In this document: positions 5,667 to 61,778 of the stretch, piece after piece
Layout of the letters: each line of letters opens with the position of its first letter
How positions within the stretch are numbered: the first letter of the stretch is position 1
Source of the DNA: Nitrosopumilus sp.
Lineage (GTDB): Archaea; Thermoproteota; Nitrososphaeria; Nitrososphaerales; Nitrosopumilaceae
Length of the DNA stretch: 64,000 bases
Direction of reading: 5' to 3'
NCBI GenBank assembly: GCA_965223425.1
Contig: OZ245003.1
Location: 2,272,001-2,336,000, forward strand
The notes under the pieces: model-generated
The model's database searches: none
The model's input: the letters and a program-made list of their open reading frames with translations, nothing else
Told to the model about the DNA's origin: nothing
Made by a program: the position numbers and the translations under genes

Positions 5667-6012
5667 ATGAAAATGAAACGAATTGAAGCGACCATTCAGG
5701 GAAACAAGGCAGGAGTCGTTTCTGCAGCAATCAATGATTAGTTGGAGGGCTTGCCATTCTAGAGGGAAACGGAAGAGGTTCTGGGGAAAGACAAACCATC
5801 AGAGCGGGAAGGGGGACAGATACCTTTGTAGCAGAATACAACAAAGTTGCAACGATCATTACAGTTGTAGATGACTCAAAAGTGGAAAAGGTTTCTGCAG
5901 CAATTGTAGATGCAGCTTGTACGGGAAAAGAGGAGACGGAATCATAGTTGTGTCCAATGTTGATAGCGTTCTAAATATTGCATCAAAAAAGACTGACTCT
6001 GAGGCACTCTAG
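5667..6012 (+). pseudogene. glnB: P-II nitrogen regulatory protein, two 1-bp frameshifts
   Basis: Manual translation gives MKMKRIEATIQGNKAGVVSAAIND / LVGGLAILEGNGRGSGERQTIRAGRGTDTFVAEYNKVATIITVVDDSKVEKVSAAIVDAACTGKE / GDGIIVVSNVDSVLNIASKKTDSEAL*. T-loop GRG and B-loop TG..GDG are present. Frameshifts at about 5738 and 5932. Confidence 0.88.
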
Positions 6013-6068
6013 CCATATCTTGCTCTCATCAAAGAACCAACGGCAAAATAATTTAATTGGTAATTACT

Positions 6069-6132
6069 ACTGAGAGGGCGTCACTACTCCCCTCAGTGCG
6101 GTATCCCTTTGGGGGACATATTTTTTTTTTTT
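6069..6132 (+). terminator. Hairpin(s) plus T12 run between convergent genes
   Basis: Stem ACTGAGAGGG...CCCCTCAGT at 6069-6097, a second GC-rich stem, then a poly-T run at about 6121-6132. Confidence 0.35.
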
Positions 6133-6185
6133 GAAGGGTTGATATGTATTGCAATTTGAGTATAAAAGCGAAGGATTTTGTAGAA

Positions 6186-6425
6186 TTATTGTTGTCCTTC
6201 TATGCCCATCAAGGTCAAGGTGGATCTGATTTTTGGAATTTTTCTTATCTTCCAAGTGATAGTTTCACGTAGCGCCTCAACCTGACTAGATTCTACTTTG
6301 GCTAAAACATCATATGCGCCAAACGTGCCATGTACTTCAACTACACCTTCAATTGATTTGAGTTCTGATATTACGGCTTCTTCAGAGCCCAGCTCACAGT
6401 TGATGAGAACATAAGCTGTTGCCAC
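6186..6425 (-). CDS. Lrp/AsnC ligand-binding (RAM) domain protein
   Basis: AYVLINCELG...EVHGTFGAYDVLAKV...IRKIPKIRSTLTL. Confidence 0.92.
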   Translation of the reverse strand: MATAYVLINCELGSEEAVISELKSIEGVVEVHGTFGAYDVLAKVESSQVEALRETITWKIRKIPKIRSTLTLMGIEGQQ

Positions 6426-48805: not shown

Positions 48806-49063
48806 CTATTGGTTGATCTTACCACTACGAAAATCATCAGTCTGTTTGAGGAATTGATCTTTGTACTGTTCATCCATTTCAATCAGAGTGAACTTACTAT
48901 CTGATTGTAAGATCTCTTTTTTTTGCCAATAATCTTCAATTTTACCTTTAACATCATCAACTGAAAAGATATTACTGTACAAAATGCATCTTTGCAATCC
49001 ACCATTATAACCATAAATATTATCTGAAGATGTTTTGCATTTTGGGCAATAGCTACCATAGAT
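48806..49063 (-). pseudogene. Hypothetical gene remnant truncated by ISH3-B
   Basis: YCPKCK-containing frame whose 5' end runs into the IS terminus. Confidence 0.45.
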
Positions 49064-50368
49064 CAGTAGTTGGGATTGTACCGTTCCAAAACAGCCCACA
49101 AATCACCCGGTAGGCGGTGGTGGCCACCTGACATACACACATGCTGCAAACACGCGGATCATCCTGTTTAAAACACCGGCAAGTGTCACATGATATCTTT
49201 GTCTGCACACCGTGCGACGCAGGCCTATCCAGATGTTGTTTATCACCAGTGACAAGACAAACAAAAGCATCCGTACGGAGGGGTTCCTGCTGGCAGTGCG
49301 CGCGCGTACGCTCTTTGCAGACCTGTACCCCGTTTCAATTCCCCAACGTTTTTTGTACTGCTCTGGGATGTACTTGACAACGTCCCTTTCATTCTCGCAT
49401 GGCAGCGACGTTGCAAATGCGCGATACCTGTCAAACATGGTGCCGTCTTTTTTCCTGGCGTCATCCCTGATCAGAACCAGGTTGAACGTGAACTTTTCGG
49501 AGCCTGATTTTATGGTGTACCTGGAGACATCACCGCGCTTTCCTTGGGCGTGCTGTACAATGGCGCGCTTGATGCCGGCATTCTTTTTTGCCGGCATGAT
49601 AAAATGCCTGTGAAGCGATCTGACAGTCCGCATCACGTCTGTTGCGTAAAACTCCCTGTCAAGAAGGTAAAGATTGATTCCAAGGTGCAGCTTGGAGCAC
49701 TTTTTGATGGTTTTACGCACGAATTCGCCGTTGGATGTACCCCGGGTGACCGGACTGAAGCACAGGTTGGCCTCCTTGCCGCCCTGCACTATCTTGGATG
49801 TCATGTATGACTCAAACCTGTACGTTCCTGACTCGTATTTTGACTGTATGAGGTGCCTGAGGTCGGGGTTTTTGTCATGGTGCGGAATCTTGTGCTTGTC
49901 TATTGCAGCCACTGCCGTTTCGTTGCTGATGCGTCGCCTCATGCTGCGGCATGCCGTGTTGACCGTATCATGCATCATCTGGTCGCAGAAGCGGTTCATC
50001 TTGTCCTGCTTTATGATGCGCAGCTTTTTGAGCAGCCAGCTGCCCGACGGCATGCGGATGCCGGGAGAGCCGAGATCTCGCGCGCCGTTGGCGTATCCGT
50101 TGGAGCTGGCCATGACCAGTAGCATGTGCGCTGCATCCCTGAGGCAGTACAGCGTGTTGTGTCTTGTGCCAAAGGCAAGGTTCAGGTGTTGCAGTGCGGA
50201 CTGGAAGATTTTAAATCCCCTGATGTCTTGGTTCTGTTGGTGTGTTTGCCCATCTTTTTCGTACATGTTAAGGTGGGTGAGCATGCCTTGTATTTGGATC
50301 TGGTTGATCGTGTTTTGTTCTTAAAATGATCAGTTTGGGCTATCCAAAATGTACAATCCCAACTACTG
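49064..50368 (-). mobile_element. ISH3-family element B, copy 2 (transposase 49103-50284)
   Basis: Same TIR CAGTAGTTGGGATTGTAC; protein nearly identical to 30605-31786; no TSD. Confidence 0.92.
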
Positions 50369-50390
50369 ACGGTATATGTACTAAGACATT

Positions 50391-51491
50391 AGATGAGTTG
50401 CGCAATTACAATCAAAACCCCATCTTTCACTCGATAGTTTTTGATTTTATGGAATCACAACAAGCTTTTGCTTCCACCGTATCTTGAAATTAACAATTCT
50501 GCAAACTCTCACTAATAGTGTCATAACGACACAATCTGTTCCTAAATGTATCTGCACTAATTCTGAATTTTTTGATTTGTGCAATGACATGCTCCCTATC
50601 CTGATTCTAATTTTAGCTTGAGATTTGTTCCACTCTTTCTGAGAATCAGTTAATTTTTTTCTTGTATGGCAAAATGCTGGTCTGTTTTGGAAGGTCCTTT
50701 TCAATCCCCAAATATCCAAGGTCATAAAAGTTTAGCAGCTCTTCAGAATGTCGGATGTTTTGATTTGTAAATTTTGTAATCGTGACGACGTCCAGGTGAG
50801 TGTGCAGGTTTGTGAATTATGACTCTCAAGATTTATCGTAATCTGGTTTTGTACTGTGTGGTCTTTCTTTCTGCCTGAATAGTGTGTTTTACGTTTGCGT
50901 TTGTTTTTTGGTCTCAGTATTGGTTGCTCTGTACCATCTGTGATTGCAATTAATTCTGGGAAGAACTCTTGGAGTTACTGTATGCTGCTGATCTGTTTTG
51001 AATCTGCATACTTTTTGGCGGGAATTGGGATTGACTGTTTTGCTGCCGGCTCCAAATATCTGATATCTCGCATCACATTTGATTTGTTCAAATCAAATAT
51101 CATTCCCAACATATCGTGTGTTGTGTACATTCTGTAGTACATTAACAGCATCAGAACTCTGTCTTTGATTGATAGATCAAACTTGTGTCCTGCACCAATG
51201 TCTCTTTTTCTTTTCTTTTCTTTTCTTTTCTTTTCTTTTCTTTTCTTTTCTTTTCTGATAGACGTTTTGCTTCTGTAGTTTTGTAATTTTTTTGTATTTC
51301 TTTTGTATTTCTTTTGATAAGGAATCAAATTGTGGAACAGTCAGTCCCGTTATTGACAGGAATTGTTTTGGTCTTTTTGCTAGTTTCGTGTGATTGAACA
51401 TGAATTGAAAATGGTTATTTCTTAGCTTTGGATCTTGTTGTTAGGAAATATTGAGATTATACTCAAACTGAATCAATTGCGCAACTCATCT
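50391..51491 (-). mobile_element. IS5-family ISL2-like element, degenerate transposase
   Basis: 17-bp perfect TIR AGATGAGTTGCGCAATT, ATT duplicated. Motifs FLSITGLTVPQFDSL, LMLLMYYR, ITDGTEQPILRPK, YSGRKK. Confidence 0.88.
51206..51255. repeat. (TTTTC)10 microsatellite inside the ISL2-like transposase
   Basis: Ten perfect pentamer units, read directly. Confidence 0.95.
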
Positions 51492-51525
51492 ATTATATTG
51501 AACATTGAATAGCCGAATATTTAGT

Positions 51526-51924
51526 ATGAAATGGACTCATCGTAGGACTGTTGTTGTAGCCTACATCGCAATAGCAGTATTAGTAGTGACCAGACCAGAC
51601 TTTGAATATTGGCCTTGGTTACCACTTCTGGGCGTGGGTGGCGGTTCCATAATCTCCCTTAACATCATCGTGGTACGACGGCAACACAATCAGTCAGAAA
51701 GTGCAAAGATCGCTGCAAAGAAGGAAGAGCTCAAACTCCGAAAAATGGAAGACGACTACATGAACAAACCAATGCGCGATAACGGAAAACTCCTACTCAA
51801 GCTTTTGGTTGGTGTTGTTGCTCTTTTTGTGGTTTTTGCATTGGTTCGAGCTATATGGGAAGGGCCTGAATCAGCACAAGGCATAGTTGACTGGATTGAG
51901 CTACTACGATGTCAGTGTAGTTAG
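51526..51924 (+). CDS. Membrane hypothetical protein
   Basis: Three hydrophobic segments. Confidence 0.6.
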   Translation: MKWTHRRTVVVAYIAIAVLVVTRPDFEYWPWLPLLGVGGGSIISLNIIVVRRQHNQSESAKIAAKKEELKLRKMEDDYMNKPMRDNGKLLLKLLVGVVALFVVFALVRAIWEGPESAQGIVDWIELLRCQCS

Positions 51925-52350
51925 TACGTGGTTAGTACCAAATTGCCATGTTTACACAACTAACAGAGGCAACCAAAAAAGAGCATGAAATGTAAATTGA
52001 TCCGCTCCTATCACCGTACCCTGACTCCATGTAGCATATGGACAAGAAGAAGCTCTATGACAGGATATGTTTCCTGTACTATGAGGACTACACATCAAGG
52101 TTTGTCATGACGCAAGTAAAGTTTCTATTCTCCTAAGATCCACATTTTCGATCAGTAGTGGATTGTTAATCGAGGTCACTTTGGAACAGCAGTGTCCGTA
52201 ATTGTAGTTATAACAAAGTCGCGCAGGATACCTTTGAGCTAACCGCCAGGTATCAGAATTCAGGAGGCTGGGTCATCATAGATGAACAGAACCCGCAATA
52301 GAGAACCGATCAAGGATTAGTTTAAATCATAGAAGAGAAAGCAGGCTTTT

Positions 52351-53854
52351 GTGGCGGTTCATATTTTCCTGAGTTTTGTAGAGGAGAATCTTAATCTTGT
52401 AAACATGTTCCGAGCTCAGGCAAAAAACAGTAAGATAGATTTAGAATTTGCAGACTATTCCATCAAAGAACCAATCGATAGTGAAAATGCCCCATACATA
52501 AAACGGCAGATAAAAGAGAAGATCAGACAGAGTTCCATCATAATATGTTTAATTGGAGATTCAACCCATGATATAGTCTCGAGCAAAAGTTCTTGAGATC
52601 AAATATGTTAGACAGAAATACATTTTGATCACGCCGCACCACGCATTGCAATGCCCACAGTAAAATCCGAAGACCTGAAGAAAGCGTACAAGAGGGAGAA
52701 GAACCCTCGTGTCAAGATCAGAATGGCGGCCGTAAACATGGTGTGCATGAACAATGAAAGCATTCAACATGTGGCAGACTCGCTCATGCAGTGCCCCAAC
52801 TGGGTGTCCTTCTGGGTGGAACGTTTCAAGGAGGAGAAGGGCGGCATAGACGCCCTCCGGGATCTTCCAAAGACAGGCAGGCCGCCAAAGGTTCGGTTGG
52901 ACAAGATTGCAAGGGTTGTATCAGATGCAAACAGCAGCGGCATTATTACGCCAAAAAGACTCAAAAGCGACATACAAAAAAGATTCAAAGTAAAATACCA
53001 CATAACCAGCATCAGAAAGATAATGCACAAGCTTGGAATGTCTGCCAAGACGGCTCAGCGCATCCACATCAGCAGGGCAGAAATTGACAAAATCAAAAGG
53101 TGGCAACACAATGCAAAAAGGCGGATTTCACGCCTGGAATTGAAGGGTTTTACAACTGTCGTTTTTGACGAATCGATATTCATCGACGATCCTGCAAGTG
53201 GCGCAAAGTACTGGTCACCAAAAGGGGAGCCAATCACAACGACATACAAGGGACGGCACGGCAGGGTGGTGGCATACGGCTCCATTGCGACAGACGGCAG
53301 GCAGTTCTTTAGGACATATGACAGGTTTGACAAGGAGACGGTTCTGCAATACATCAAGGAGATGACAAGTCATTTTGGCAAGGTGACAATCATCATGGAC
53401 AACGCGCCGCAGCACAAGGCAAGGATTGTAAAAGAGTTTCTTGCAGGCAACCCCGATGTCAGGACAATATGGCTTCCGACTGCAACGCCTGAGCTCAGTG
53501 TAGTTGAGGAGTACTGGCATCAGGCAAAACGGGACGTGTCGGTATCTGAATATTACGCTACGGTTGTGCACATGCGCCATGCAATGTCAGAATATTTCAG
53601 GACAGCCCGTCCCAAGCTTGATGCGATGAAGTTTATCTGTAGAAGGTCGCTCACTCTCAAAAACTTTTGATTGACACTATAGCTCTTGGGTGGAATGGGA
53701 ATTAGAAACCGGTCACGATCTGGACAAATGCCTCATAGGAGTAAGACTGCATTCTGACAATGATGATATCGAACCACAACCATTAATTGATCATTCTGCT
53801 GATATAGTTGACTGGAATATTGACGACATTATCACTGCAATCGAAAATTGCTAA
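52351..53854 (+). pseudogene. ThsB-like TIR domain protein (DUF1863-type) split by IS630
   Basis: Removing the IS and one TA gives 131 aa: MAVHIFLSF...FADYSIKEPIDSENAPYIKRQIKEKIRQSSIIICLIGDSTHD-SSWVEWELETGHDLDKCLIGVRL...IVDWNIDDIITAIENC*. The catalytic WE glutamate is present. Confidence 0.88.
52574..53679 (+). mobile_element. IS630-family element, copy A2 (transposase 52651-53670)
   Basis: Same 1106-bp element as 20745-21850; TA duplicated at 52572-52573 and 53680-53681. Confidence 0.95.
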
Positions 53855-53863
53855 TGTTTACTC

Positions 53864-54286
53864 ATGAACGAACAAGATTTTTCTGATTTCGTAAAAAATA
53901 GATATGAGGATCAATTGCAGTGGTATGACCAAAAGTCTATCACCTGCAAACGCAACCATGATGTTTTACAAACAATCATAATTTTTTGTTCTTCACTCAC
54001 ACCAGTTTTGATACTGATATTAGAACCAGACTGGAAGATATTGGCAGTGTTCACATCAATGATTGTTGCAATATCCACAGGTTTAATTGCAACATTTAAG
54101 ATTCGTGAAAAGTGGATAAACTATAGAATAACAGCAGAATCTATGCGCAAAGAATATTCACATTACAAGACTGATACTGAGAAATATTCTGTTGCACAAG
54201 ACAAACAAAAACTATTTGTTGAGAGTATAGAATTTTTGCTTGCTGGTGAAGTTACAAACTGGCAGAATATACAGAAAAAGAAATAA
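53864..54286 (+). CDS. SLATT (DUF4231-like) two-TM effector
   Basis: RYEDQLQWYDQKS, two TM helices, REKWINYRITAESMRKE...LFVESIEFLLAGE..W. Confidence 0.85.
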   Translation: MNEQDFSDFVKNRYEDQLQWYDQKSITCKRNHDVLQTIIIFCSSLTPVLILILEPDWKILAVFTSMIVAISTGLIATFKIREKWINYRITAESMRKEYSHYKTDTEKYSVAQDKQKLFVESIEFLLAGEVTNWQNIQKKK

Positions 54287-54309
54287 CATAGATCGTACCA
54301 AATACAAGT

Positions 54310-54519
54310 ATGTCTTCAAAAATACAAAAATATGTAAAGAAACCCATCCCAATCGAGGCAGTGCAGCTAGAAAAAGTCAAGACAATAAAAACATTGGAAG
54401 GGACAATGAAAGGTAAAAAGGGAGATTATCTGGTAACTGGTATTCGTGGTGAAAAGTACATCGTCAAACGAGATATTTTTGAGGAAATGTATGTTTTATT
54501 TCAGACGAAGGAAACCTAA
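54310..54519 (+). CDS. PGDYG-like small beta protein
   Basis: KYVKKPIPIEAVQ...IKTLEGTMKGKKGDYLVTGIRGEKYIVKRDIFEEMY. Confidence 0.78.
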   Translation: MSSKIQKYVKKPIPIEAVQLEKVKTIKTLEGTMKGKKGDYLVTGIRGEKYIVKRDIFEEMYVLFQTKET

Positions 54520-54817
54520 CAGCTGTTATTATTGGTATCATTGGTATTGTCATAGGATCCTTATTTCTCAAATCGTAAAAGAGTGTAAAGTTTAATACGT
54601 CCGTTCTGACGTACATTAGTCAAACAGTTTACATTGTTCCAAACTCGGGATATTTAACCGGACTGTTCAATTCGGGACATGGAAATTTAGAACTCATATG
54701 GCTGTTCAATTTGGAACTTAACTGGTTAAAACACTGTATAATAAAAGAATTCAAAAGATAATTACATGGTTCAAAATTCGGGTTTTCAACATATGTTAAA
54801 TTCTAGTAATGGAGCGG

Positions 54818-55117
54818 TCAATCAATGTAATAAGATATTTCAAATTTTCTGTCTCCGAGCGGCTCAAGATTTAGTTTGTGTGGGTGTTCTTTTTCCCAAC
54901 GATTCAGTCCTAGTTCTATAATCCACCTAGTGATTTGCTTTCCTCTCAACTCAGGACATGTTTTCCAAAAAGAATCGGTCAAAGTAATTGGAACGAAAGA
55001 TGTTTTTTCTCCAAGTTTTACAGACACTACTTTCCATGAGGGATGAAATTTTCTCATGTCTGTTTTATCTACATACAATCTGTAGCTTGAGCCCACTCTT
55101 TGAGTCGTTAGAACCAA
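54818..55117 (-). CDS. Small hypothetical protein
   Basis: SFWKTCPELRGKQITRWI...W..EHP.KL.LEPLG; start uncertain. Confidence 0.6.
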   Translation of the reverse strand: MVLTTQRVGSSYRLYVDKTDMRKFHPSWKVVSVKLGEKTSFVPITLTDSFWKTCPELRGKQITRWIIELGLNRWEKEHPHKLNLEPLGDRKFEISYYID

Positions 55118-55162
55118 TAAGAAAGTTAATTTGGAATTCTATTTAGACCTTGACGTAACTAT

Positions 55163-56383
55163 AGATTGTTGCATAACACGCCTAAAATCTACCACGCAGT
55201 TTAAACTGACCAACAAATACACATGTTTCTGACCGAAAAAGCTTTAGATCATGACGGCATGCTCAAAGTGTTGACCGATAATGCAAAGTACGTCCGGCGT
55301 GGTGCAGAGCTGGTAGTGCAGTACAATCCCGACTGGAGCTGCGAGGTAGGGCAGGCCAACTGCGGCAAGGAGGAGGGGGGCACCGTTCCAGTATGCAGAC
55401 ACCATGATCATATGACAGCCGCACTGAGAACCGCCCTCGGCGTTCCATTCAGGCAGCTGTCCGGGATGGCAGATAAGATGCTTGAGGGACACGACTCGCC
55501 GCACTATACCACGCTGTGCAGAAGAATGGAGAAATTTGACATTAGCATTCACGGCAACGCCATATACGTTCATGATACATCCCGGCACGTAACCCCGGTG
55601 GCCGATGCCACCGGACTCTGACAGTGGAACCGCGGAGAACGGATACGCGACAAGTGGAAGGCGGTGGTGGTGACGCGCAAGGGATATGTCAAGATGCACC
55701 TGCCGGCAGATGCGGACACCGGCATGATACTTGCTGCAGTAGTCACAGACGACAGAACCGGCGACTCGCCGGTACTGCAGGATCTGCTGGATCAGGCAGT
55801 GGCAGAGCCGCTTGCCAAGGCCTGGAAGGACGATGCGAGAAAGAGGCCAAACATGCTTGCAGACGGAGTCTCTCCGCTTGCCGGTTCGGCAGGCGGCAAG
55901 GAGGAGGAAGAAAAGGATGCACCGGGCGCCAGCCTGCTTGCAGACGGCGCATATGCATCCAAGAAAAACATGAATGCGTGCAGGAAGAAGGGCATCAAGC
56001 CGCTTGTGCCCCTCAAACCGTGCCTTGCTGAGAGCGGCAGGGGCGATGACGGCAAGGAGTGGAACCTGGCCGTGAAAGAGCAGCTGGGAGGCAGCGCAGG
56101 CATGCACGTCAAGGGACTGACAGTGGAACAGAAAAAGGAGAACAGAAGATGCTGGAAGTCTACTGTAGGGTACGGCAAAAGGTGGAGAATAGGGGCAATC
56201 ATCTCCGCATTCAAGCGGATGTTCGGAGAGCATCTGCTCTCACGCAAGTGGGAGAGCATGGTAAGAGAGGCAAGGGTGAGGATTGCCATGTACAACCGGT
56301 GGGTGGCAGCAGCAATGTAGGGGAGCAGGTGCATGGATCCTGGGATGAACGGGATGTGGTCAGGCCGAGTTATGCAACACACT
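55163..56383 (+). mobile_element. IS5-family (IS903-like) element copy 2, degenerate
   Basis: Inverted homolog of 33780-34992 with the same TIRs; nonsense TGA at 55619-55621 plus a frameshift. Confidence 0.87.
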
Positions 56384-57284
56384 ATAGGATGGAACTTGGA
56401 AGTGTTAAACCGTTTGGAGTGCGCCGCAAGGCGAAATATTCAGGTGGTGGCAGCTTGATGTGAATTTGGCGACAACCCCTACTCATGGTGTGCCTTGACT
56501 TTACATTCAGGGACATGGAGAATCTTGCAGCTCTGCTGAGGATGCCGTGGAACGAACCCCTGCCGGATCACAGCACCATTGCCAAGTTCATGCAAAAGAT
56601 TCCTGCTGCGTGGCTTGAGGACACGGTTGCCGTCACGGCAGCATCGTGCCTTGCAGGATTTGACGTCTCTGATCTTGCGCCGGCATCAGACAGCAGCGGC
56701 GTTGCCACTGACAGGTATGAAAGAGTGCAAAAAAAGGCCAAAAACAGGCACAAACCGGAGGCAAAGCGTCAAAAGAAGTATCTGAAATGGCACGTGGCCT
56801 CGGTACTGGGCCTGCAGGTCATACTCTCCTGCCGCATCACATCCAACAGGATGGCAGACACTGCAGTTTTGCCTCGCTGCTAAGGAAGATCAAAAAGACA
56901 GGCATTGCCTTTGCAGGCAGGTTCAACGCAGACAGGGGGTATGATTCTGATAGGAACTGCAGGCTTGTCTTTGGTGCCGGCATGACCCCGAACATAAAGC
57001 AGAGGGGCAATGCCGTGAACAGGACAAAAAAGTTCAGGAAAAAGGCCGCAGGGCTGTTTGACGGGGAGATCTACAAAAAACGAGGCATGATAGAGGGAAT
57101 ATTTGGAGCAGAGGAGACAGAGGGCCACAGGTTGCTGTGCAGGTTCAGAAAGACATCCACAAGAAGGCGGTTTGGACTGTGCAAGGCCATAGGATGGAAC
57201 TTGGAAGTGTTAAACCGTTTGGAGTGCGCCGCAAGGCGAAATATTCAGGTGGTGGCAGCTTGATGTGAATTTGGCGACAACCCC
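56384..57284 (+). mobile_element. Truncated IS5-family elements: orphan right end (56384-56479) inside a 5'-truncated sibling (56480-57284)
   Basis: 96-bp direct repeat 56384-56479 = 57189-57284 ending GGCGACAACCCC. Motifs PDHSTI, DSSG, KWH, NADRGYD, YKKRGMIEGIFG; frameshift near 56875. Confidence 0.78.
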
Positions 57285-57939
57285 GGGACTTCCTACAGAT
57301 AAACTTCATTGCATCAAGCTTGGGACGAGCTGTCCTGAAATATTCTGACATTGCATGGCGCATGTGCACAACCGTAGCGTAATATTCAGATACCAGCACG
57401 CCCCGTTTTGCCTGATGCCAGTACTCCTCTGTAACGCTGAGCTCGGGAGTTGCAGTCGGAAGCCATATGACCTTGACGTTCTTGTTTCCCTTTAGGAATT
57501 TGCTTACAATTATTCCCTTGTGCTGCGGCGCGTTGTCCATTATTATGGCCACCTTTCCAAAATGCCTTGCCAATTCCTTCAAGTATTGCAGTACGGTCTC
57601 CTTGTCGAATTTGTCGTACGTCCGGAAGAACTGCCTGCCGTCAATCCCGATGGAGCCATACGCCACAACCCTGCCGTGCCGTCCCTTGTACGTCGTTATG
57701 ATCGGCTGGCCCTCAGGCGACCAGTACTTTGCGCCGGATGTCGGGTCGTCGATGAAGATGGCCTCGTCAAATACCACGACGGCAAAACCCAGTTTTTTCA
57801 GGCGTGAAATCTGCCTTTTTGCGCTGCGCTGCCATTTTTTGATCTCGTCGATCTCTGCCCTGTTGATGTGGATTCGCCGTACCGTCTTGGCAGTCAGGCC
57901 GAGTTTGCGCATTATCTTTCTGACGTTTGTGATGTGATA
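57285..57939 (-). pseudogene. IS630 transposase B fragment (both ends lost to other IS)
   Basis: FDEAIF, MDNAPQH, PELSVTEEYW; close relative of IS630-A. Confidence 0.85.
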
Positions 57940-58546
57940 TAGTGTCAAGCAAAAGTTCTTGAATGATCAAATTTGCCAAGCAGGAACATATTTTGATCCC
58001 CGCAACCTAGTTGAGGCATGCCTCCAACATTAACATCGGAAGATCTCAGGAAGACGTACAAAAACGAGAAGGATCTCAGAATAAGAAGCAGGATACTGGC
58101 AGTAAACATGGTGTGCGTGCAGGGTGCAAGCGTCCACAGATTACCGCCGACTTTCTGCTGCAGAGCGCAGGATGGGTATCTTATTGGGTAGATCGCTTTG
58201 AGAAGGGCGGAATAGATGCCCTTCGGGATCTTCCCAGAACAGGCAGACCGCCCAAGATTGAACAAAAAAAGATCAACAAGATAATATCGTCCCGTCCGGG
58301 CAACAGAACCACACCCAAGATGCTCCGCAACGACATACGAAAGAAGCATCATATCACATACCACATTACGTCTGTCCGAAGAATATTGAAAAGGATGAAC
58401 ATGTCTGTCAAGAGGACACAGACGGTTCATGCAAACAGGGCAAGCACAAAAAAGATCCGCAGCTGGCAAAAACGCATAAAAAACAAGATTCCACGCCTGA
58501 ATCGGGAGGGGTTTGTAACTGTGATACAGGACGAGGCCATCTACGT

Positions 58547-59915
58547 CAGTAGTTCCCAGATGTAGATTTACCGCAACCGCAACTGGCATCGGTTCTACTT
58601 GCCTCGATCATTGACAAACAACTCGTTTCTGCTTGTAATGTACACGATAAACAACGCCATGGTGAGTTTTTTTCCCGCAGAAGACGCTCTTCCGTGCCTC
58701 TTTCCCGCATCAAGGCAGAACCTGGCAATCCTCCACAGGTTGTACAGCAGCAGCGGCAGGTAAAACATCAGCAGCCTCACAGACAGGGAGTTGCTGCATG
58801 TCCTGCCCATGATCTCCTTTATGACGCGAAACCCCGTCTCGATGCCCCATCTCTTGCGGTACTGCTCCGGTATGATGCCTGTCATGGCTCTGGCGCTCCT
58901 GATGGGAATGTTTGTTGCAAACGCAATGTATTGCTCCTCCCCCTCCTCTTCCCCCTCCCCCTTTTTCTTCTTCTTCCTGTCTCTTTTGACAATTACAAGG
59001 TTGTAGGTCACAGTTACGCCGTCTTTGTTGGTCATTGACTGCTGCGATACCTGGCTTGCCTTTCCGTCCTTGTACATCTTGACTATCCTCTTGATCTTGG
59101 AGTTCATGATGACAGGCATAATGTAGCGGCACCCGCCCTTTCCTGCCTCTGTCATGCAGTCAACGTTGTAAAAGGCGCGGTCGTACAGGAACACAGTCTT
59201 TGAGTGTGCGCCCCCTCTGAGGATTTTCGTGCGTGTTTTGGCTATAAAATCGGCCAGTTTTTCCTTTGCCGGTAGTAGCTTCGATTCCAGGACAATCTGC
59301 GAGGAGTCCCTGCCGACTCCGTGCACTGCGACATACGAGAGAAACGTGGATGTTCCTGCCCTTGGACGCGACTTTCTTGTATGCTCCTGCAGCTGCTCCC
59401 CATGGTATGGTATGTCCGTAACGTCTATTGCAATGGCGTCGATGTCCTGCAGCATTCCTGCACGGCAGGCGTGCCGCACCGTGCGTGCCAGCGTCCTTGC
59501 ACACCAGGCCTGCACGTCTGCCGGTTCGACGCCACGGACTGCAGACATGACCAGGTCTGCATCAGGCGTACGTGCACCCGTGTCTTGAAGCCTGTTGTGC
59601 CGCACGAGGGATTCTACAAACGTGTTTCTCTCAGACGCCTTGATTAGCACGTCCAGTATGTCATTGCATCCGTATACGGCGTTGTGCCTCTCAGACATTG
59701 GCATGCCAAGCTTTTGAAACGACGAGCGCAAGATTTTAAACCGGTTTGATGTTATATTGTACTGGCGTGCGATCAGTTCGTCATGTAATTCGACTTTCAT
59801 GACATATTGCACGCCGTAGCCTAATCTGGATCTTTGCATTGCAGTTATGCGGTAACGCACCGGCATCTGGGCATAAACCTACATCTGGGCACAAATCTAC
59901 ATCTGGGAACTACTG
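58547..59915 (-). mobile_element. ISH3-family element A, copy 2 (transposase 58595-59839)
   Basis: Same 23-bp TIR; 4-bp TSD ACGT at 58543-58546 and 59916-59919. Confidence 0.93.
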
Positions 59916-59949
59916 ACGTGCACGAGAATGCGGCAGGCCGAAAGTACTG

Positions 59950-61091
59950 TAGTTAGCACATTAAATAATTGAACATTTTCACAGGCAGGATCTCCTTTCT
60001 GGCAAACAGCTTGCGTACTGACTGCTCCATCTCATCTAGCGTGCCAAACACTTTTGCAGACAGTACCCGTTTTATCACCCTCCACTGCATCTCAATGGGA
60101 TTAAGCTCCGGCGTGTACGGCAGCAGGTACTCCAGAACTATCTCGCCGTTGTATCTTTCCAGAAACTCCTTTACCTTTTTGGATTTGTGATATGACGCAT
60201 TGTCTACAAACAGCAGCACCTTGCCGAATCTTTTGTGAACCCGTTCCAAAAAGTTGCAAAAGCTGTCGCTGTTTGACTTTTCATAAAACATAAAGTAAAA
60301 TGCGTTTGCCGCCAAAGCTCCAAAGATGTATCTTCTTTCGCGTGACAAAACAGAGGGGGATGTGGCGCGCTTGCCGCGCCTTCTCCACCCGTAGCCGGGC
60401 CTGTTTGATGCCTTTTGAATCGAGGATGCATCGCCGGCCAGTACGGTGTATCCCTGCGCCGACTTTTCTGCAACGAGTTTTTTTGCCCGCTCCTGAAACT
60501 CTTTTTGCTTTCTTTTTGAGGCTGATCTTGGGTTTTTTGGACGCGCCTTGCTCCACGAAAAGCCCATCTCCCTGACCAGCTGCAGCGCGCCTGTCTTGCT
60601 GTACTGCACGCCGAACTTTTTCTTGATGTGCAGCCTTACCAGGTTGGAATCCCACAGGCTGCTCTCAAAGCCGCATGATTCTGGCCCCGCATCCAGGTCT
60701 GCTGCAAGCTGTCTTGCCTGCGGCCCGCCTATCAGGTGCTTTCGTCCCCTGCCGCTGCGCTCGAACCTTGCGCGTATTCCCTCGTCCTGTGCGCGGTTGA
60801 GCCATGCAGATATGGTGGACTTGGGCCTTCCCAGCATCCTTCCAATCCTGTCTAGCGGCACGCCGTCCTTGCGCTGCATGTACGCAAGCAGCCTGTCGCG
60901 CCTTCTGGGATCGGTCTCTTTTTTGTATGCCCTTTTGAGGTCTGCAACGCTGGTGTTTGGCAGAAATTTTGCCCCCCTTGCAACCTGTCTCTTTTTTTGT
61001 TTGTACATGCAGTGTGTGCGATATGGCCGGTCTTGGATCTTTTGGCCAAAAATAATTGTCAAAATGGTTCAGGTTTTTTATGTACTTACTA
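59950..61091 (-). mobile_element. IS630 element D with intact transposase (59953-61008)
   Basis: Imperfect TIRs beginning TAGT; motifs LAGDASSI, VDNASYH, YTPELNPIE; TG duplicated at 59948-59949 and 61092-61093. Confidence 0.88.
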
Positions 61092-61778
61092 TGGTCTCCC
61101 AAGGGAGAGCCGGTGACGGTTCCGTATCGTACAAGACGCAAAAGAATAATCGCCTCAGGTGCAATATCGGCTGATGGCCGCAGGTTCTTTAGAACGTATG
61201 AGCAAAGGTTTGCCAAGGAACACTTTCTGTCGTATCTCAAGGAGCTGCAACATAACTTTGGCAGGGTGCACGTTATCATGGACTCTTCGTCTGTGCATAC
61301 TGCAAAAATAATACAAGAGCATGTCCGGAAAAGCAAGGACATCCGGGTCACGTATCTTCCCGCCGCGACGCCGGAGCTAAGCGCCATGGAGGAGTACTGG
61401 CACCAGTCAAAGCACGATGTACTGGTGTCTGAATATTATGCAACAGTTGGGGCGATGAGACAGACGCTTTCAGAGTATCTGAGGACGCATTGCACAAAGC
61501 TTGACGTGATCAAGTACGTCAAGAGAGATCCAAAAACCTTCAAGAACTTATAGTTCAAACTATAGACAACAGAAATCATGGGGTCGTACCCTCATTGATC
61601 TGTTTGCATTTTGTAGCCGGTTTGGCCTGAATTAGAGCAGACTTCGCTTAGCTGCATAGTTAGTTATATTGATATATCGTGATATTTGGTATTTGGTATT
61701 GAGTCGTTGTTGTGAAGAACCGGATGATAAAATCTGGACATTATATCTTGATTGTGCTGATCAGGTAGTGCGTGTATT

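Follow-up and report, generated by a model that had tools for sequence, protein, structure and literature searches.

What does a small, conserved third gene do beside a two-gene TIR-SLATT defence system? The question is raised by positions 52351 to 54519 of a 64,000-nucleotide (nt) stretch of Nitrosopumilus sp. contig OZ245003.1, which we call the window and to whose numbering the coordinates below refer. At this locus a ThsB-type TIR gene interrupted by an insertion sequence (IS) of the IS630 family is followed by a SLATT gene and by a gene for a 69-amino-acid (aa) short form of the PGDYG protein family. We place a probability of roughly 55% on the explanation, taken as a whole, that the locus is an inactivated type VII Thoeris system of a sub-lineage borne by mobile elements, in which the small protein serves as a negative or self-immunity factor.

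An IS630-family element splits a ThsB-type TIR gene

The module comprises five features:

52351..52573, + strand: 5' part of the ThsB-type TIR gene, codons 1-74 and the first base of codon 75, with a GTG start
52574..53679, + strand: IS630-family insertion sequence of 1106 bp, with a transposase open reading frame (ORF) at 52651-53670 and TA at 52572-73 and 53680-81
53681..53854 (ORF 53690..53854), + strand: 3' part of the TIR gene, 57 codons with the SSWVEWE motif and the stop at 53852-54
53864..54286, + strand: SLATT gene, 140 aa, DUF4231/SLATT_1, two hydrophobic segments; this type is called ThsH in type VII Thoeris
54310..54519, + strand: small short-form PGDYG-fold gene, 69 aa, the conserved third partner

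In the ORF list the same region appears as four + strand frames, namely an 81-aa frame that starts at 52351 and runs into the 339-aa transposase gene, a 54-aa frame ending at 53854, and the 140-aa and 69-aa frames. Excision of the IS together with one TA joins the two TIR parts in frame (CAT GAT A/GC TCT TGG GTG GAA TGG GAA, with the slash at the junction; 74 + 57 = 131 aa), and the rejoined product reads ..GDSTHD/SSWVEWELE.. across the junction. When longer proteins were searched with the N half, 123 relatives came up, many of them exactly 131 aa long; in an alignment with intact 131-aa homologues (A4) the two window halves meet exactly, leaving no gap and no overlap (P0017: ..STHDSSWVEWELE..; ..SSTHDSSWVEWELE..). 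The Pfam ThsB_TIR profile is covered from position 1 to 71 of 100 by the N half (E 4.2e-11) and from 73 to 100 by the C half (E 0.0084), and this profile break at 71/73 coincides with the position of the IS. The PADLOC ThsB1 search matched the N half at 4.4e-7 and the C half (PDLC00418) at E 2.3e-9, and the C half is 91% identical to the corresponding part of P0017. Residues W77, V78, W80 and E81 are near-invariant in alignment A4, where the E81 column extends across 34 rows; we take E81 of SSWVEWE to be the catalytic Glu, from what is known of TIR NADases.

The IS630-family transposase matches DDE_3 (8.3e-22) and HTH_33/32/29 in Pfam. We set the ends of the element by comparing the flanks of near-identical genomic copies, since the DNA outside their common part is unrelated. 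The common ends read TATAGTCT...GACACTATA (TAGTCT...GACACTA in the window copy), and TA flanks the ends TAGTCTCGA.../...TTGACACTA in every copy compared. An exact-seed inverted-repeat finder returned 0 pairs for the IS region, the terminal repeats being imperfect. Six further near-full-length copies with 99-100% identity occur in the same genome, along with fragments (22 matches in total). The presence of seven near-identical full copies genome-wide, the window copy included, indicates that the element was recently active. Contigs from three public sequencing runs pass from the flanks into the IS, in X1 and X2 from each flank, which argues that the insertion is not an assembly artefact. No contig of four runs joins across the IS as an empty-site allele would, in a form of data (assembled contigs) that drops rare variants.

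The TIR gene of the window is split by the IS, and no signal can be made from this copy. Spacers of 9 nt between the TIR and SLATT genes and of 23 nt between the SLATT and small genes complete the layout. No SIR2, SLOG or Macro gene adjoins it, the neighbours within about 5 kb being DDE transposases or genes with no Pfam match. Thus the original prediction for this locus, drawn from the DNA itself, holds in its structural claims: a complete 131-aa ThsB-like TIR with a catalytic-type SxWVxWE motif upon IS excision, a two-TM (transmembrane) SLATT/DUF4231-like gene and a 69-aa PGDYG-like gene at these distances, the lack of an adjoining SIR2/SLOG or Macro ThsA, a copy inactivated by the IS, and an archaeal host, the last agreeing with an SSU_rRNA_archaea match of 1460 bits that is the best of its clan. 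We hold the TIR-SLATT identity and the inactivation of this copy with high confidence.

A second, weak ThsB_TIR match (25.5 bits) lies outside the window at G000:C1:301237-301482, within a 329-aa frame that contains one in-frame TAG.

The TIR-SLATT pair corresponds to type VII Thoeris

The SLATT domain was reportedly named by Burroughs et al. in 2015, who are said to have predicted it to be an effector. The 140-aa protein of the window matches DUF4231 (6.8e-18) and SLATT_1 (4.9e-11) in Pfam and phrog_7395 (1.4e-28), and its two hydrophobic segments were read from the sequence by eye. A Pfam search among the window neighbours found no other effector domain near the TIR-SLATT pair. The Thoeris-like pairing put forward in the original prediction is already described as a two-gene system, type VII Thoeris, consisting of ThsB and ThsH (Yirmiya et al., bioRxiv 10.64898/2025.12.03.692087, December 2025). 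According to the preprint, type VII TIRs produce canonical cyclic ADP-ribose (cADPR) upon infection, cells with the two genes cease growing after cADPR addition, an oligomeric model of ThsH has charged pockets between its protomers, SLATT is proposed as its own sensor, and Tad1 and MoTad2 fail to inhibit the system (bioRxiv 10.64898/2025.12.03.692087).

A TIR-centred sample of metagenome contigs gave 124 confirmed places for the window's TIR family, of which 80 were kept. A SLATT gene accompanies the TIR gene in 63 of these 80 loci, nearly always directly downstream and on the same strand; among the other 17, eight loci run out less than 500 nt past the TIR gene. Such frequent pairing within the same TIR family indicates that the window pair belongs, as an unremarkable case, to a system that is common and already described. 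It is unusual in two points, its archaeal host and its broken state. In a tree, the window SLATT falls together with phage-borne SLATTs in one clade (SH-aLRT 99); a comparison with IMG/VR yielded no close relative. Of 61 related genomes, three have a SLATT match: the window genome (G000), G007 and G021.

The module has a G+C content of 35-36%, against 42.9% for the window, and its surroundings from 49 to 61 kb consist mostly of transposase genes. Together with the occurrence of SLATT in few related genomes, these features point to a locus that was acquired horizontally and afterwards decayed.

Three metagenome loci (L198, L199 and L202) carry two different TIR genes with SLATT and a further gene, of 209-215 aa in L198 and L199 and of 335 aa in L202; the 209-215-aa products look hydrophobic by eye. 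This variant falls inside the SLATT clade that contains the small-gene-linked sequences described below and has no small gene. On the Halocatena marina plasmid NZ_CP109982.1 (L119, 288594-290455), a DUF4231/SLATT gene faces a SAVED-domain gene in convergent orientation, near type III-A CRISPR genes (csm5) and without a TIR gene; this SLATT may be wired to cyclic-oligoadenylate signalling.

The small gene is a conserved accessory of TIR-SLATT loci in mobile elements

The small gene was surveyed through 84 loci encoding relatives of its product (4 cellular, 80 viral). In 11 of these, SLATT lies directly beside the small gene and ThsB_TIR next to SLATT, as Pfam confirmed for representatives. An IMG/VR scan with one phage SLATT returned 16 loci (9 already among those above and 7 new ones from two further lineages, with 45-53% identity), and every one of the 16 carries both the small gene and a TIR gene. 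The same query found 18 records in deposited phage genomes, and the trio was present in all six phage, satellite and phage-like plasmid records that were inspected: Staphylococcus phages X2, S-CoN_Ph24 and SN8, an S. chromogenes 'plasmid', Streptococcus phage Javan235 and satellite Javan277. An hmmsearch confirmed the small gene in five of them (E 1e-21 to 7e-23), and annotation and tblastn identify it in SN8. When the X2 small protein was compared with phages, the best 31 records (at least 69% identity; 22 Staphylococcus, 9 Streptococcus) were of the TIR-bearing kind, and in those with RefSeq annotation a TIR gene is annotated as touching the small-protein match. In a sample of 401 genomes around a Bacillota-type genome, searched with PF14015, DUF4231 occurred in three genomes, two of which have the small gene abutting it. 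Among the 61 relatives of the window genome, the small gene is found in only two, G000 (the window's own) and G007, and in both it adjoins this SLATT or what remains of it. The co-occurrence of the three genes elsewhere, on which the original prediction had staked its proposal, is therefore well documented.

The trio occurs in four arrangements. All three genes lie on one strand in the window (TIR>SLATT>small); the small gene is convergent with SLATT in L017, the L041 group and L109-111 (TIR>SLATT><small), and convergent with TIR in the Staphylococcus and Streptococcus elements (SLATT>TIR><small); and in L023, L112-115 and L126 it sits between the two, on the opposite strand (SLATT><small TIR>). 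The small gene is on the opposite strand in most lineages and co-directional in the window and its two closest relatives. The TIR type also changes among trios (about 200 aa, 141-148 aa or 131-135 aa). Over 28 pairwise comparisons among eight trios, the small protein has a median identity of 61.5%, compared with 35% for TIR and 32% for SLATT, and between L017 and L023 the TIRs are barely alignable while the small proteins are 81% identical. That the linkage persists through rearrangement and partner exchange indicates that selection keeps these genes together, and we consider a real functional linkage of the small gene to TIR-SLATT probable.

From the TIR side, the small gene was detected in none of the 63 SLATT-bearing metagenome loci at E<=0.01, and this absence can be assessed, as 32 of 44 strictly adjacent TIR-SLATT pairs extend at least 300 nt beyond SLATT and 35 extend at least 300 nt before TIR. 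The sole small-gene match in the 80 TIR loci is a 229-aa protein located 2.3 kb from a TIR gene in a locus without SLATT. These counts indicate that the small gene is an accessory rather than a core part. In a SLATT tree of 67 valid rows (L116, translated out of frame, is disregarded, and P0013-P0015 are labelled 'no small' without a known gene context), all 13 small-linked SLATTs fall into one clade of 25 rows (SH-aLRT 99). The same clade holds haloarchaeal plasmid copies, five two-TIR metagenome copies and two TIR-less Bacteroidota copies, and the other 42 metagenome SLATTs lie outside it. We conclude that the small gene is not a chance neighbour and instead is a conserved accessory that marks a TIR-SLATT sub-lineage of phages, satellites and other mobile elements. 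This trio and the restriction of its third gene to mobile elements appear to be undescribed: the main text of the type VII preprint mentions no such gene, and no account of the trio came up in the literature searched.

The two nearest relatives of the window module seem to keep all three genes: the same 12,215-nt longest contig is reported for TIR P0017, SLATT P0012 and small protein P0002, and the same 15,639-nt longest contig for TIR P0016 and small protein P0003, whose called N-terminus reads through DNA homologous to the SLATT 3' end.

Three further loci touch on this linkage. In L099 (G007:C1:15957-19142), a gene for a 61-aa homologue of the small protein (1712-1894, - strand; 48% identity) is convergent with the C-terminal third of a SLATT gene (about 1522-1674, + strand), and no TIR gene is present; it represents another copy of the module in the same archaeal genus, decayed independently of the first. 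The metagenome locus L186 (3001-6373) has three TIR-domain genes in a row and, 18 nt after them on the same strand, the gene for the 229-aa protein mentioned above, which has a C-terminal PGDYG-like unit (E 1.8e-5); it has no SLATT and may represent a second kind of TIR-PGDYG link. In L109 (2778-3341) and L110 (2735-3295), a gene for a 187-188-aa protein lies directly upstream of TIR-SLATT and shows a TIR-like motif by eye (..DIFLSHRY..).

The small protein is a one-unit member of the PGDYG family

The 69-aa protein scores 25.8 bits against Pfam PGDYG (PF14083), where the cut-off is 27, and covers profile positions 5-34 only. The Pfam model is about two units long; the natural tandem found in L127 scores 51.1 bits. 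The window protein matches phrog_419 at 4.8e-17 and has the motifs KKP..EA.Q, TLEG, GDY, GE.Y and DIF..Y in common with the PGDYG family. It differs from most phage members of PGDYG/phrog_419 in being a one-unit short form (60-69 aa) that lacks their insert of about 25 aa. Its AlphaFold2 (AF2) model (pLDDT 91.6) consists of five strands and a short C-terminal helix, and a Foldseek search of BFVD with this model gave 20 matches at E<=0.001, the best being a 'PGDYG protein' with TMq 0.82. In contrast to BFVD, the PDB gave no Foldseek match at E<=0.001 (best E 1.2), and a profile search of PDB sequences with the family reached a best E of 0.57, so no solved relative was found.

A word-indexed search found ten close relatives of the 69-aa protein, all metagenomic. 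The family as a whole is large: a profile search retrieved 26,601 representative clusters (at 50% identity) with E<=0.001, and tblastn located the family in 743 of 50,697 deposited phage genomes (1.5%), in agreement with the earlier supposition that such proteins are abundant in phages. Strictly lytic phages commonly carry a member (SPO1-like, Ackermannviridae, Klebsiella and Acinetobacter groups). A literature search returned no paper naming the PGDYG family or PF14083, and no function assigned to it.

Natural tandem and multi-repeat forms exist with up to 31 units, and the L127 tandem passes the Pfam cut-off with two stretches. These forms suggest that the PGDYG unit is a binding module that pairs with itself. 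Longer PGDYG proteins, 10 from the loci and 10 from the representative search, contain CN_hydrolase, FHA/Zeta, GrpE and Annexin domains, and no sponge or NAD-related domain is fused in these 10 + 10 proteins. One giant PGDYG protein has a weak Cupin_3 match and Foldseek matches to small cupins are insignificant (E 1.2-3.8); a distant cupin-like half-barrel is possible for this fold, and we do not claim it. Around 58 non-redundant PGDYG loci that have no TIR-SLATT, the neighbouring genes (111 proteins) include those for dUTPase_2 (5), YopX (4), scaffold (4), minor capsid (3) and Tad2-like (3; sub-threshold and from one phage group) proteins, and give no clear functional signal.

The small protein was also considered as a member of a known sponge family, and this was rejected: PF11195, PF13876 and PF21825 gave no match at E<=1 in Pfam, and the fold has no likeness to them. 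The resemblance to Tad1, Tad2, Acb2 or Acb4 that had been envisaged for it thus did not emerge in Pfam or in the two PDB searches.

Several members of the family are of interest in their own right. The tandem duplication in L127 (1878-2324, - strand) encodes 149 aa in two units and overlaps the 3' end of a SLATT gene, with no TIR gene in 3.3 kb. Giant proteins of 1,612-3,743 aa from the representative library contain PGDYG-like units (7 in P0146, 15 in P0141 and 31 in P0136), and P0149, from the same library, also bears Annexin repeats; the unit also serves as a repeat module outside phages. In L063, L064, L080 and L085, which are related phage contigs, a gene for 76-79 aa (about 5700-5990) lies directly upstream of a long-form PGDYG gene (5998-6288 or 5830-6120) and has a Tad2-like match of 22.6 bits, against a cut-off of 25, over its N-terminal 30 residues only. 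In a Thermosipho metagenome-assembled genome (L013, 7342-10569), the PGDYG gene lies in an apparent prophage about 1.2 kb upstream of queD, queE and queC-like genes of the 7-deazaguanine pathway, as judged by eye from N-terminal sequences, and BFVD lists a PGDYG-like model annotated as QueE. No DUF4231 was found in the four cellular genomes with a relative of the small protein (L013-L016).

A possible self-immunity role in phage-borne Thoeris

The pattern behind a self-immunity reading consists of the presence of the small gene in mobile carriers, its opposite strand, its conservation, the occurrence of its family in lytic phages and the existence of tandem and repeat forms. Phage SN8 illustrates the strand relationship: its genes follow in the order holin (+), endolysin (+), integrase (-), small gene (+), TIR (-), DUF4231 (-), ImmA-like (-) and regulator (-), which places the small gene with the lytic genes and TIR-SLATT with the lysogeny genes. 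A sigma-70 promoter and terminator scan around the small gene of phage X2 found 7 promoter-like sites against 6.8 in shuffles, and none in the 108 nt upstream.

In the mechanism that we propose, infection would prompt the 131-aa ThsB TIR to produce a signal from NAD, which by analogy with validated systems would be canonical cADPR, and the two-TM SLATT would sense this signal and damage the membrane. The small protein would dampen the system, providing self-immunity or setting a threshold; it would bind or remove the TIR product, or else block TIR or SLATT directly. A prophage could then express the abortive TIR-SLATT pair against superinfecting phages and, in its own lytic phase, express the antidote, so that the carrier phage would be spared. 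Free-standing family members in lytic phages may use the same activity as counter-defence. In the window, splitting of the TIR gene by the recently active IS630-family element would have put an end to signal production from this copy.

We infer a negative-regulator or self-immunity role for the small protein tentatively, at somewhat under even odds. The conservation of the small protein independently of the TIR type favours a conserved target, either the signal molecule or a conserved surface of SLATT, and such a target ranks a sponge or signal-removing role slightly above direct inhibition. Taken singly, a signal sponge is nevertheless rather unlikely, and a direct inhibitor is less likely again. 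The reported inactivity of Tad1 and MoTad2 on type VII would leave an open niche for a dedicated inhibitor. A broader possibility, speculative and on balance doubtful, is that the PGDYG fold constitutes a new, widespread phage counter-defence class directed at TIR/cADPR-type signalling (types VII/VIII Thoeris, against which Tad1 and Tad2 are reported to be ineffective), with the short form kept in-locus by phages, satellites and other mobile elements that bear TIR-SLATT, as a self-immunity factor or off-switch and the window as a decayed cross-domain example.

Several observations weigh against a dampening role within a type VII system. The small protein resembles no known sponge or inhibitor in the PDB comparisons (best E 1.2 by Foldseek and 0.57 by profile), and no Tad2, Acb4 or Sequestin fusion occurs among the 10 + 10 longer PGDYG proteins. 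By hand count its net charge is inconsistent, at about +6 for the window protein and about -4 for the L017 protein. The small gene of the window and of its two closest relatives runs in the same direction as SLATT and follows it by 23 nt, an arrangement that looks like co-expression and suits a buffer or threshold-setter better than an on-demand antidote. TIR-SLATT accompanies only 11 of the 84 PGDYG loci, and one phage group has the short form between minor capsid and scaffold genes; the general role of the family may be unrelated to Thoeris. A DUF4231>TIR pair on a Natronomonas plasmid falls inside the small-linked SLATT clade and lacks the small gene. Finally, the window SLATT is likened to validated ThsH by its domains and gene pairing.

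Alternative explanations for the small gene

The original prediction had read the SLATT as having no fused sensor and had suggested that the small protein might be a stand-alone signal receptor, in a split sensor-effector Thoeris; as a rival reading, such a receptor would be required to gate SLATT. Tight and conserved adjacency to TIR-SLATT, the co-directional window gene 23 nt downstream of SLATT and the strong conservation expected of a ligand binder would all suit such a receptor. However, the two-gene TIR+SLATT system is reported to defend and to answer added cADPR, with pockets modelled between the SLATT protomers themselves, and the small gene is missing from all 63 SLATT-bearing loci sampled for the same 131-aa TIR family. 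The opposite-strand placement in most lineages and the 73 of 84 family loci that lie in phages without TIR or SLATT also argue against a gating function, and we regard a required receptor as improbable. The sensor-less SLATT and the receptor are the parts of that proposal that find no support, whereas a buffer role, also raised there, is close to the self-immunity role that we prefer.

A quite improbable explanation is that there is no functional link at all, the small gene being an ordinary phage gene that marks an insertion hot spot for TIR-SLATT or that is joined to it by shared descent only. It would account for the absence of the small gene from 63 SLATT-bearing metagenome loci and its presence where the carrier is a phage, and the single clade of small-linked SLATTs could reflect one ancestral juxtaposition followed by losses, since the starred branches of the tree force only three changes. 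Yet the adjacency survives four arrangements, including those of L023, L112-115 and L126 in which the small gene is located between SLATT and TIR, as well as exchange of the TIR type. It is found both in an archaeon and in Staphylococcus and Streptococcus phages at varied sites (in the lysogeny module, next to terminase and next to portal), the 31 closest phage records to the X2 small protein are of the TIR-bearing kind, and in L127 a tandem-duplicated copy still abuts SLATT. It is also very doubtful that the gene acts at the level of nucleic acids, as an operon repressor, a recombination directionality factor or a source of antisense silencing by its convergent transcript. In the Staphylococcus phages the gene is divergent from the integrase gene and convergent with TIR, with a 4-nt overlap of gene ends, and convergent overlap is the rule in phage loci, as such regulation would lead one to expect. 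Against this, several loci have no integrase nearby, the family is common in strictly lytic phage groups, and tandem and multi-repeat proteins of up to 31 units are unlike excisionases or repressors. Searches with Pfam and with Foldseek against the PDB revealed no HTH and no AbrB/MazE-like match, and the high conservation of the protein indicates selection on the protein and not only on the transcript.

Genomic surroundings

The region from 49000 to 61100 is a transposon graveyard with DDE_Tnp_1 transposase genes at 49103-50284, 55664-56320 and 58595-59866. It also contains more IS630-type copies or fragments, at 57145-57948 (truncated) and 59953-61062, some of them apparently nested.

Significance and comparison with known systems

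On its own, the archaeal TIR-SLATT copy is a modest addition, as the system is already described and the copy is dead, and the IS630-family element is itself ordinary. The wider interest lies in the small protein. Its genetic association with the type VII Thoeris of phages, seen across bacteria and in an archaeon, is the first clue to a function for the PGDYG family and hints at how prophages may carry an abortive-infection weapon without killing themselves. It would also provide a candidate inhibitor for the cADPR-based Thoeris types, for which the literature examined reports no inhibitor.

The window system has in common with type VII Thoeris a ThsB-type TIR gene that adjoins a stand-alone SLATT/DUF4231 two-TM gene without a SIR2, SLOG or Macro effector, and the pairing in 63 of 80 loci fits the clusters of a TIR next to SLATT reported there. 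It differs in being archaeal, in being split by an IS and in having a third conserved gene, on which the main text of the preprint is silent. The signal and the anti-phage defence would be attributed to an intact form of the window system by analogy with validated systems; with its TIR gene interrupted, this copy cannot defend. With phage signal sponges and signal-degrading proteins such as Tad1, Tad2, Acb2, Acb4, Sequestin and Lockin (see bioRxiv 10.1101/2025.07.12.664507), the small protein shares a small size and phage carriage. Like them, it is genetically tied to a nucleotide-signalling defence, its natural tandem hints at self-pairing, and in one phage group a sub-threshold Tad2-like gene lies directly upstream of the PGDYG gene. 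Unlike them, its gene resides inside the defence locus and not in an anti-defence island, it shows no sequence or fold similarity and no domain fusion to them, and its nucleotide binding is putative.

Other systems offer precedents for the proposed duality. AcrIII-1 and Crn2 ring nucleases form one family that viruses use against signalling defence and that serves as an off-switch in host loci, and BstA-aba is a prophage-borne abortive system with its own self-immunity determinant. Both are unrelated to the small protein in sequence and mechanism and serve, by analogy, as conceptual precedents only. Were the PGDYG fold truly a counter-defence class, its double use would be to Thoeris what the AcrIII-1/Crn2 duality is to type III CRISPR.

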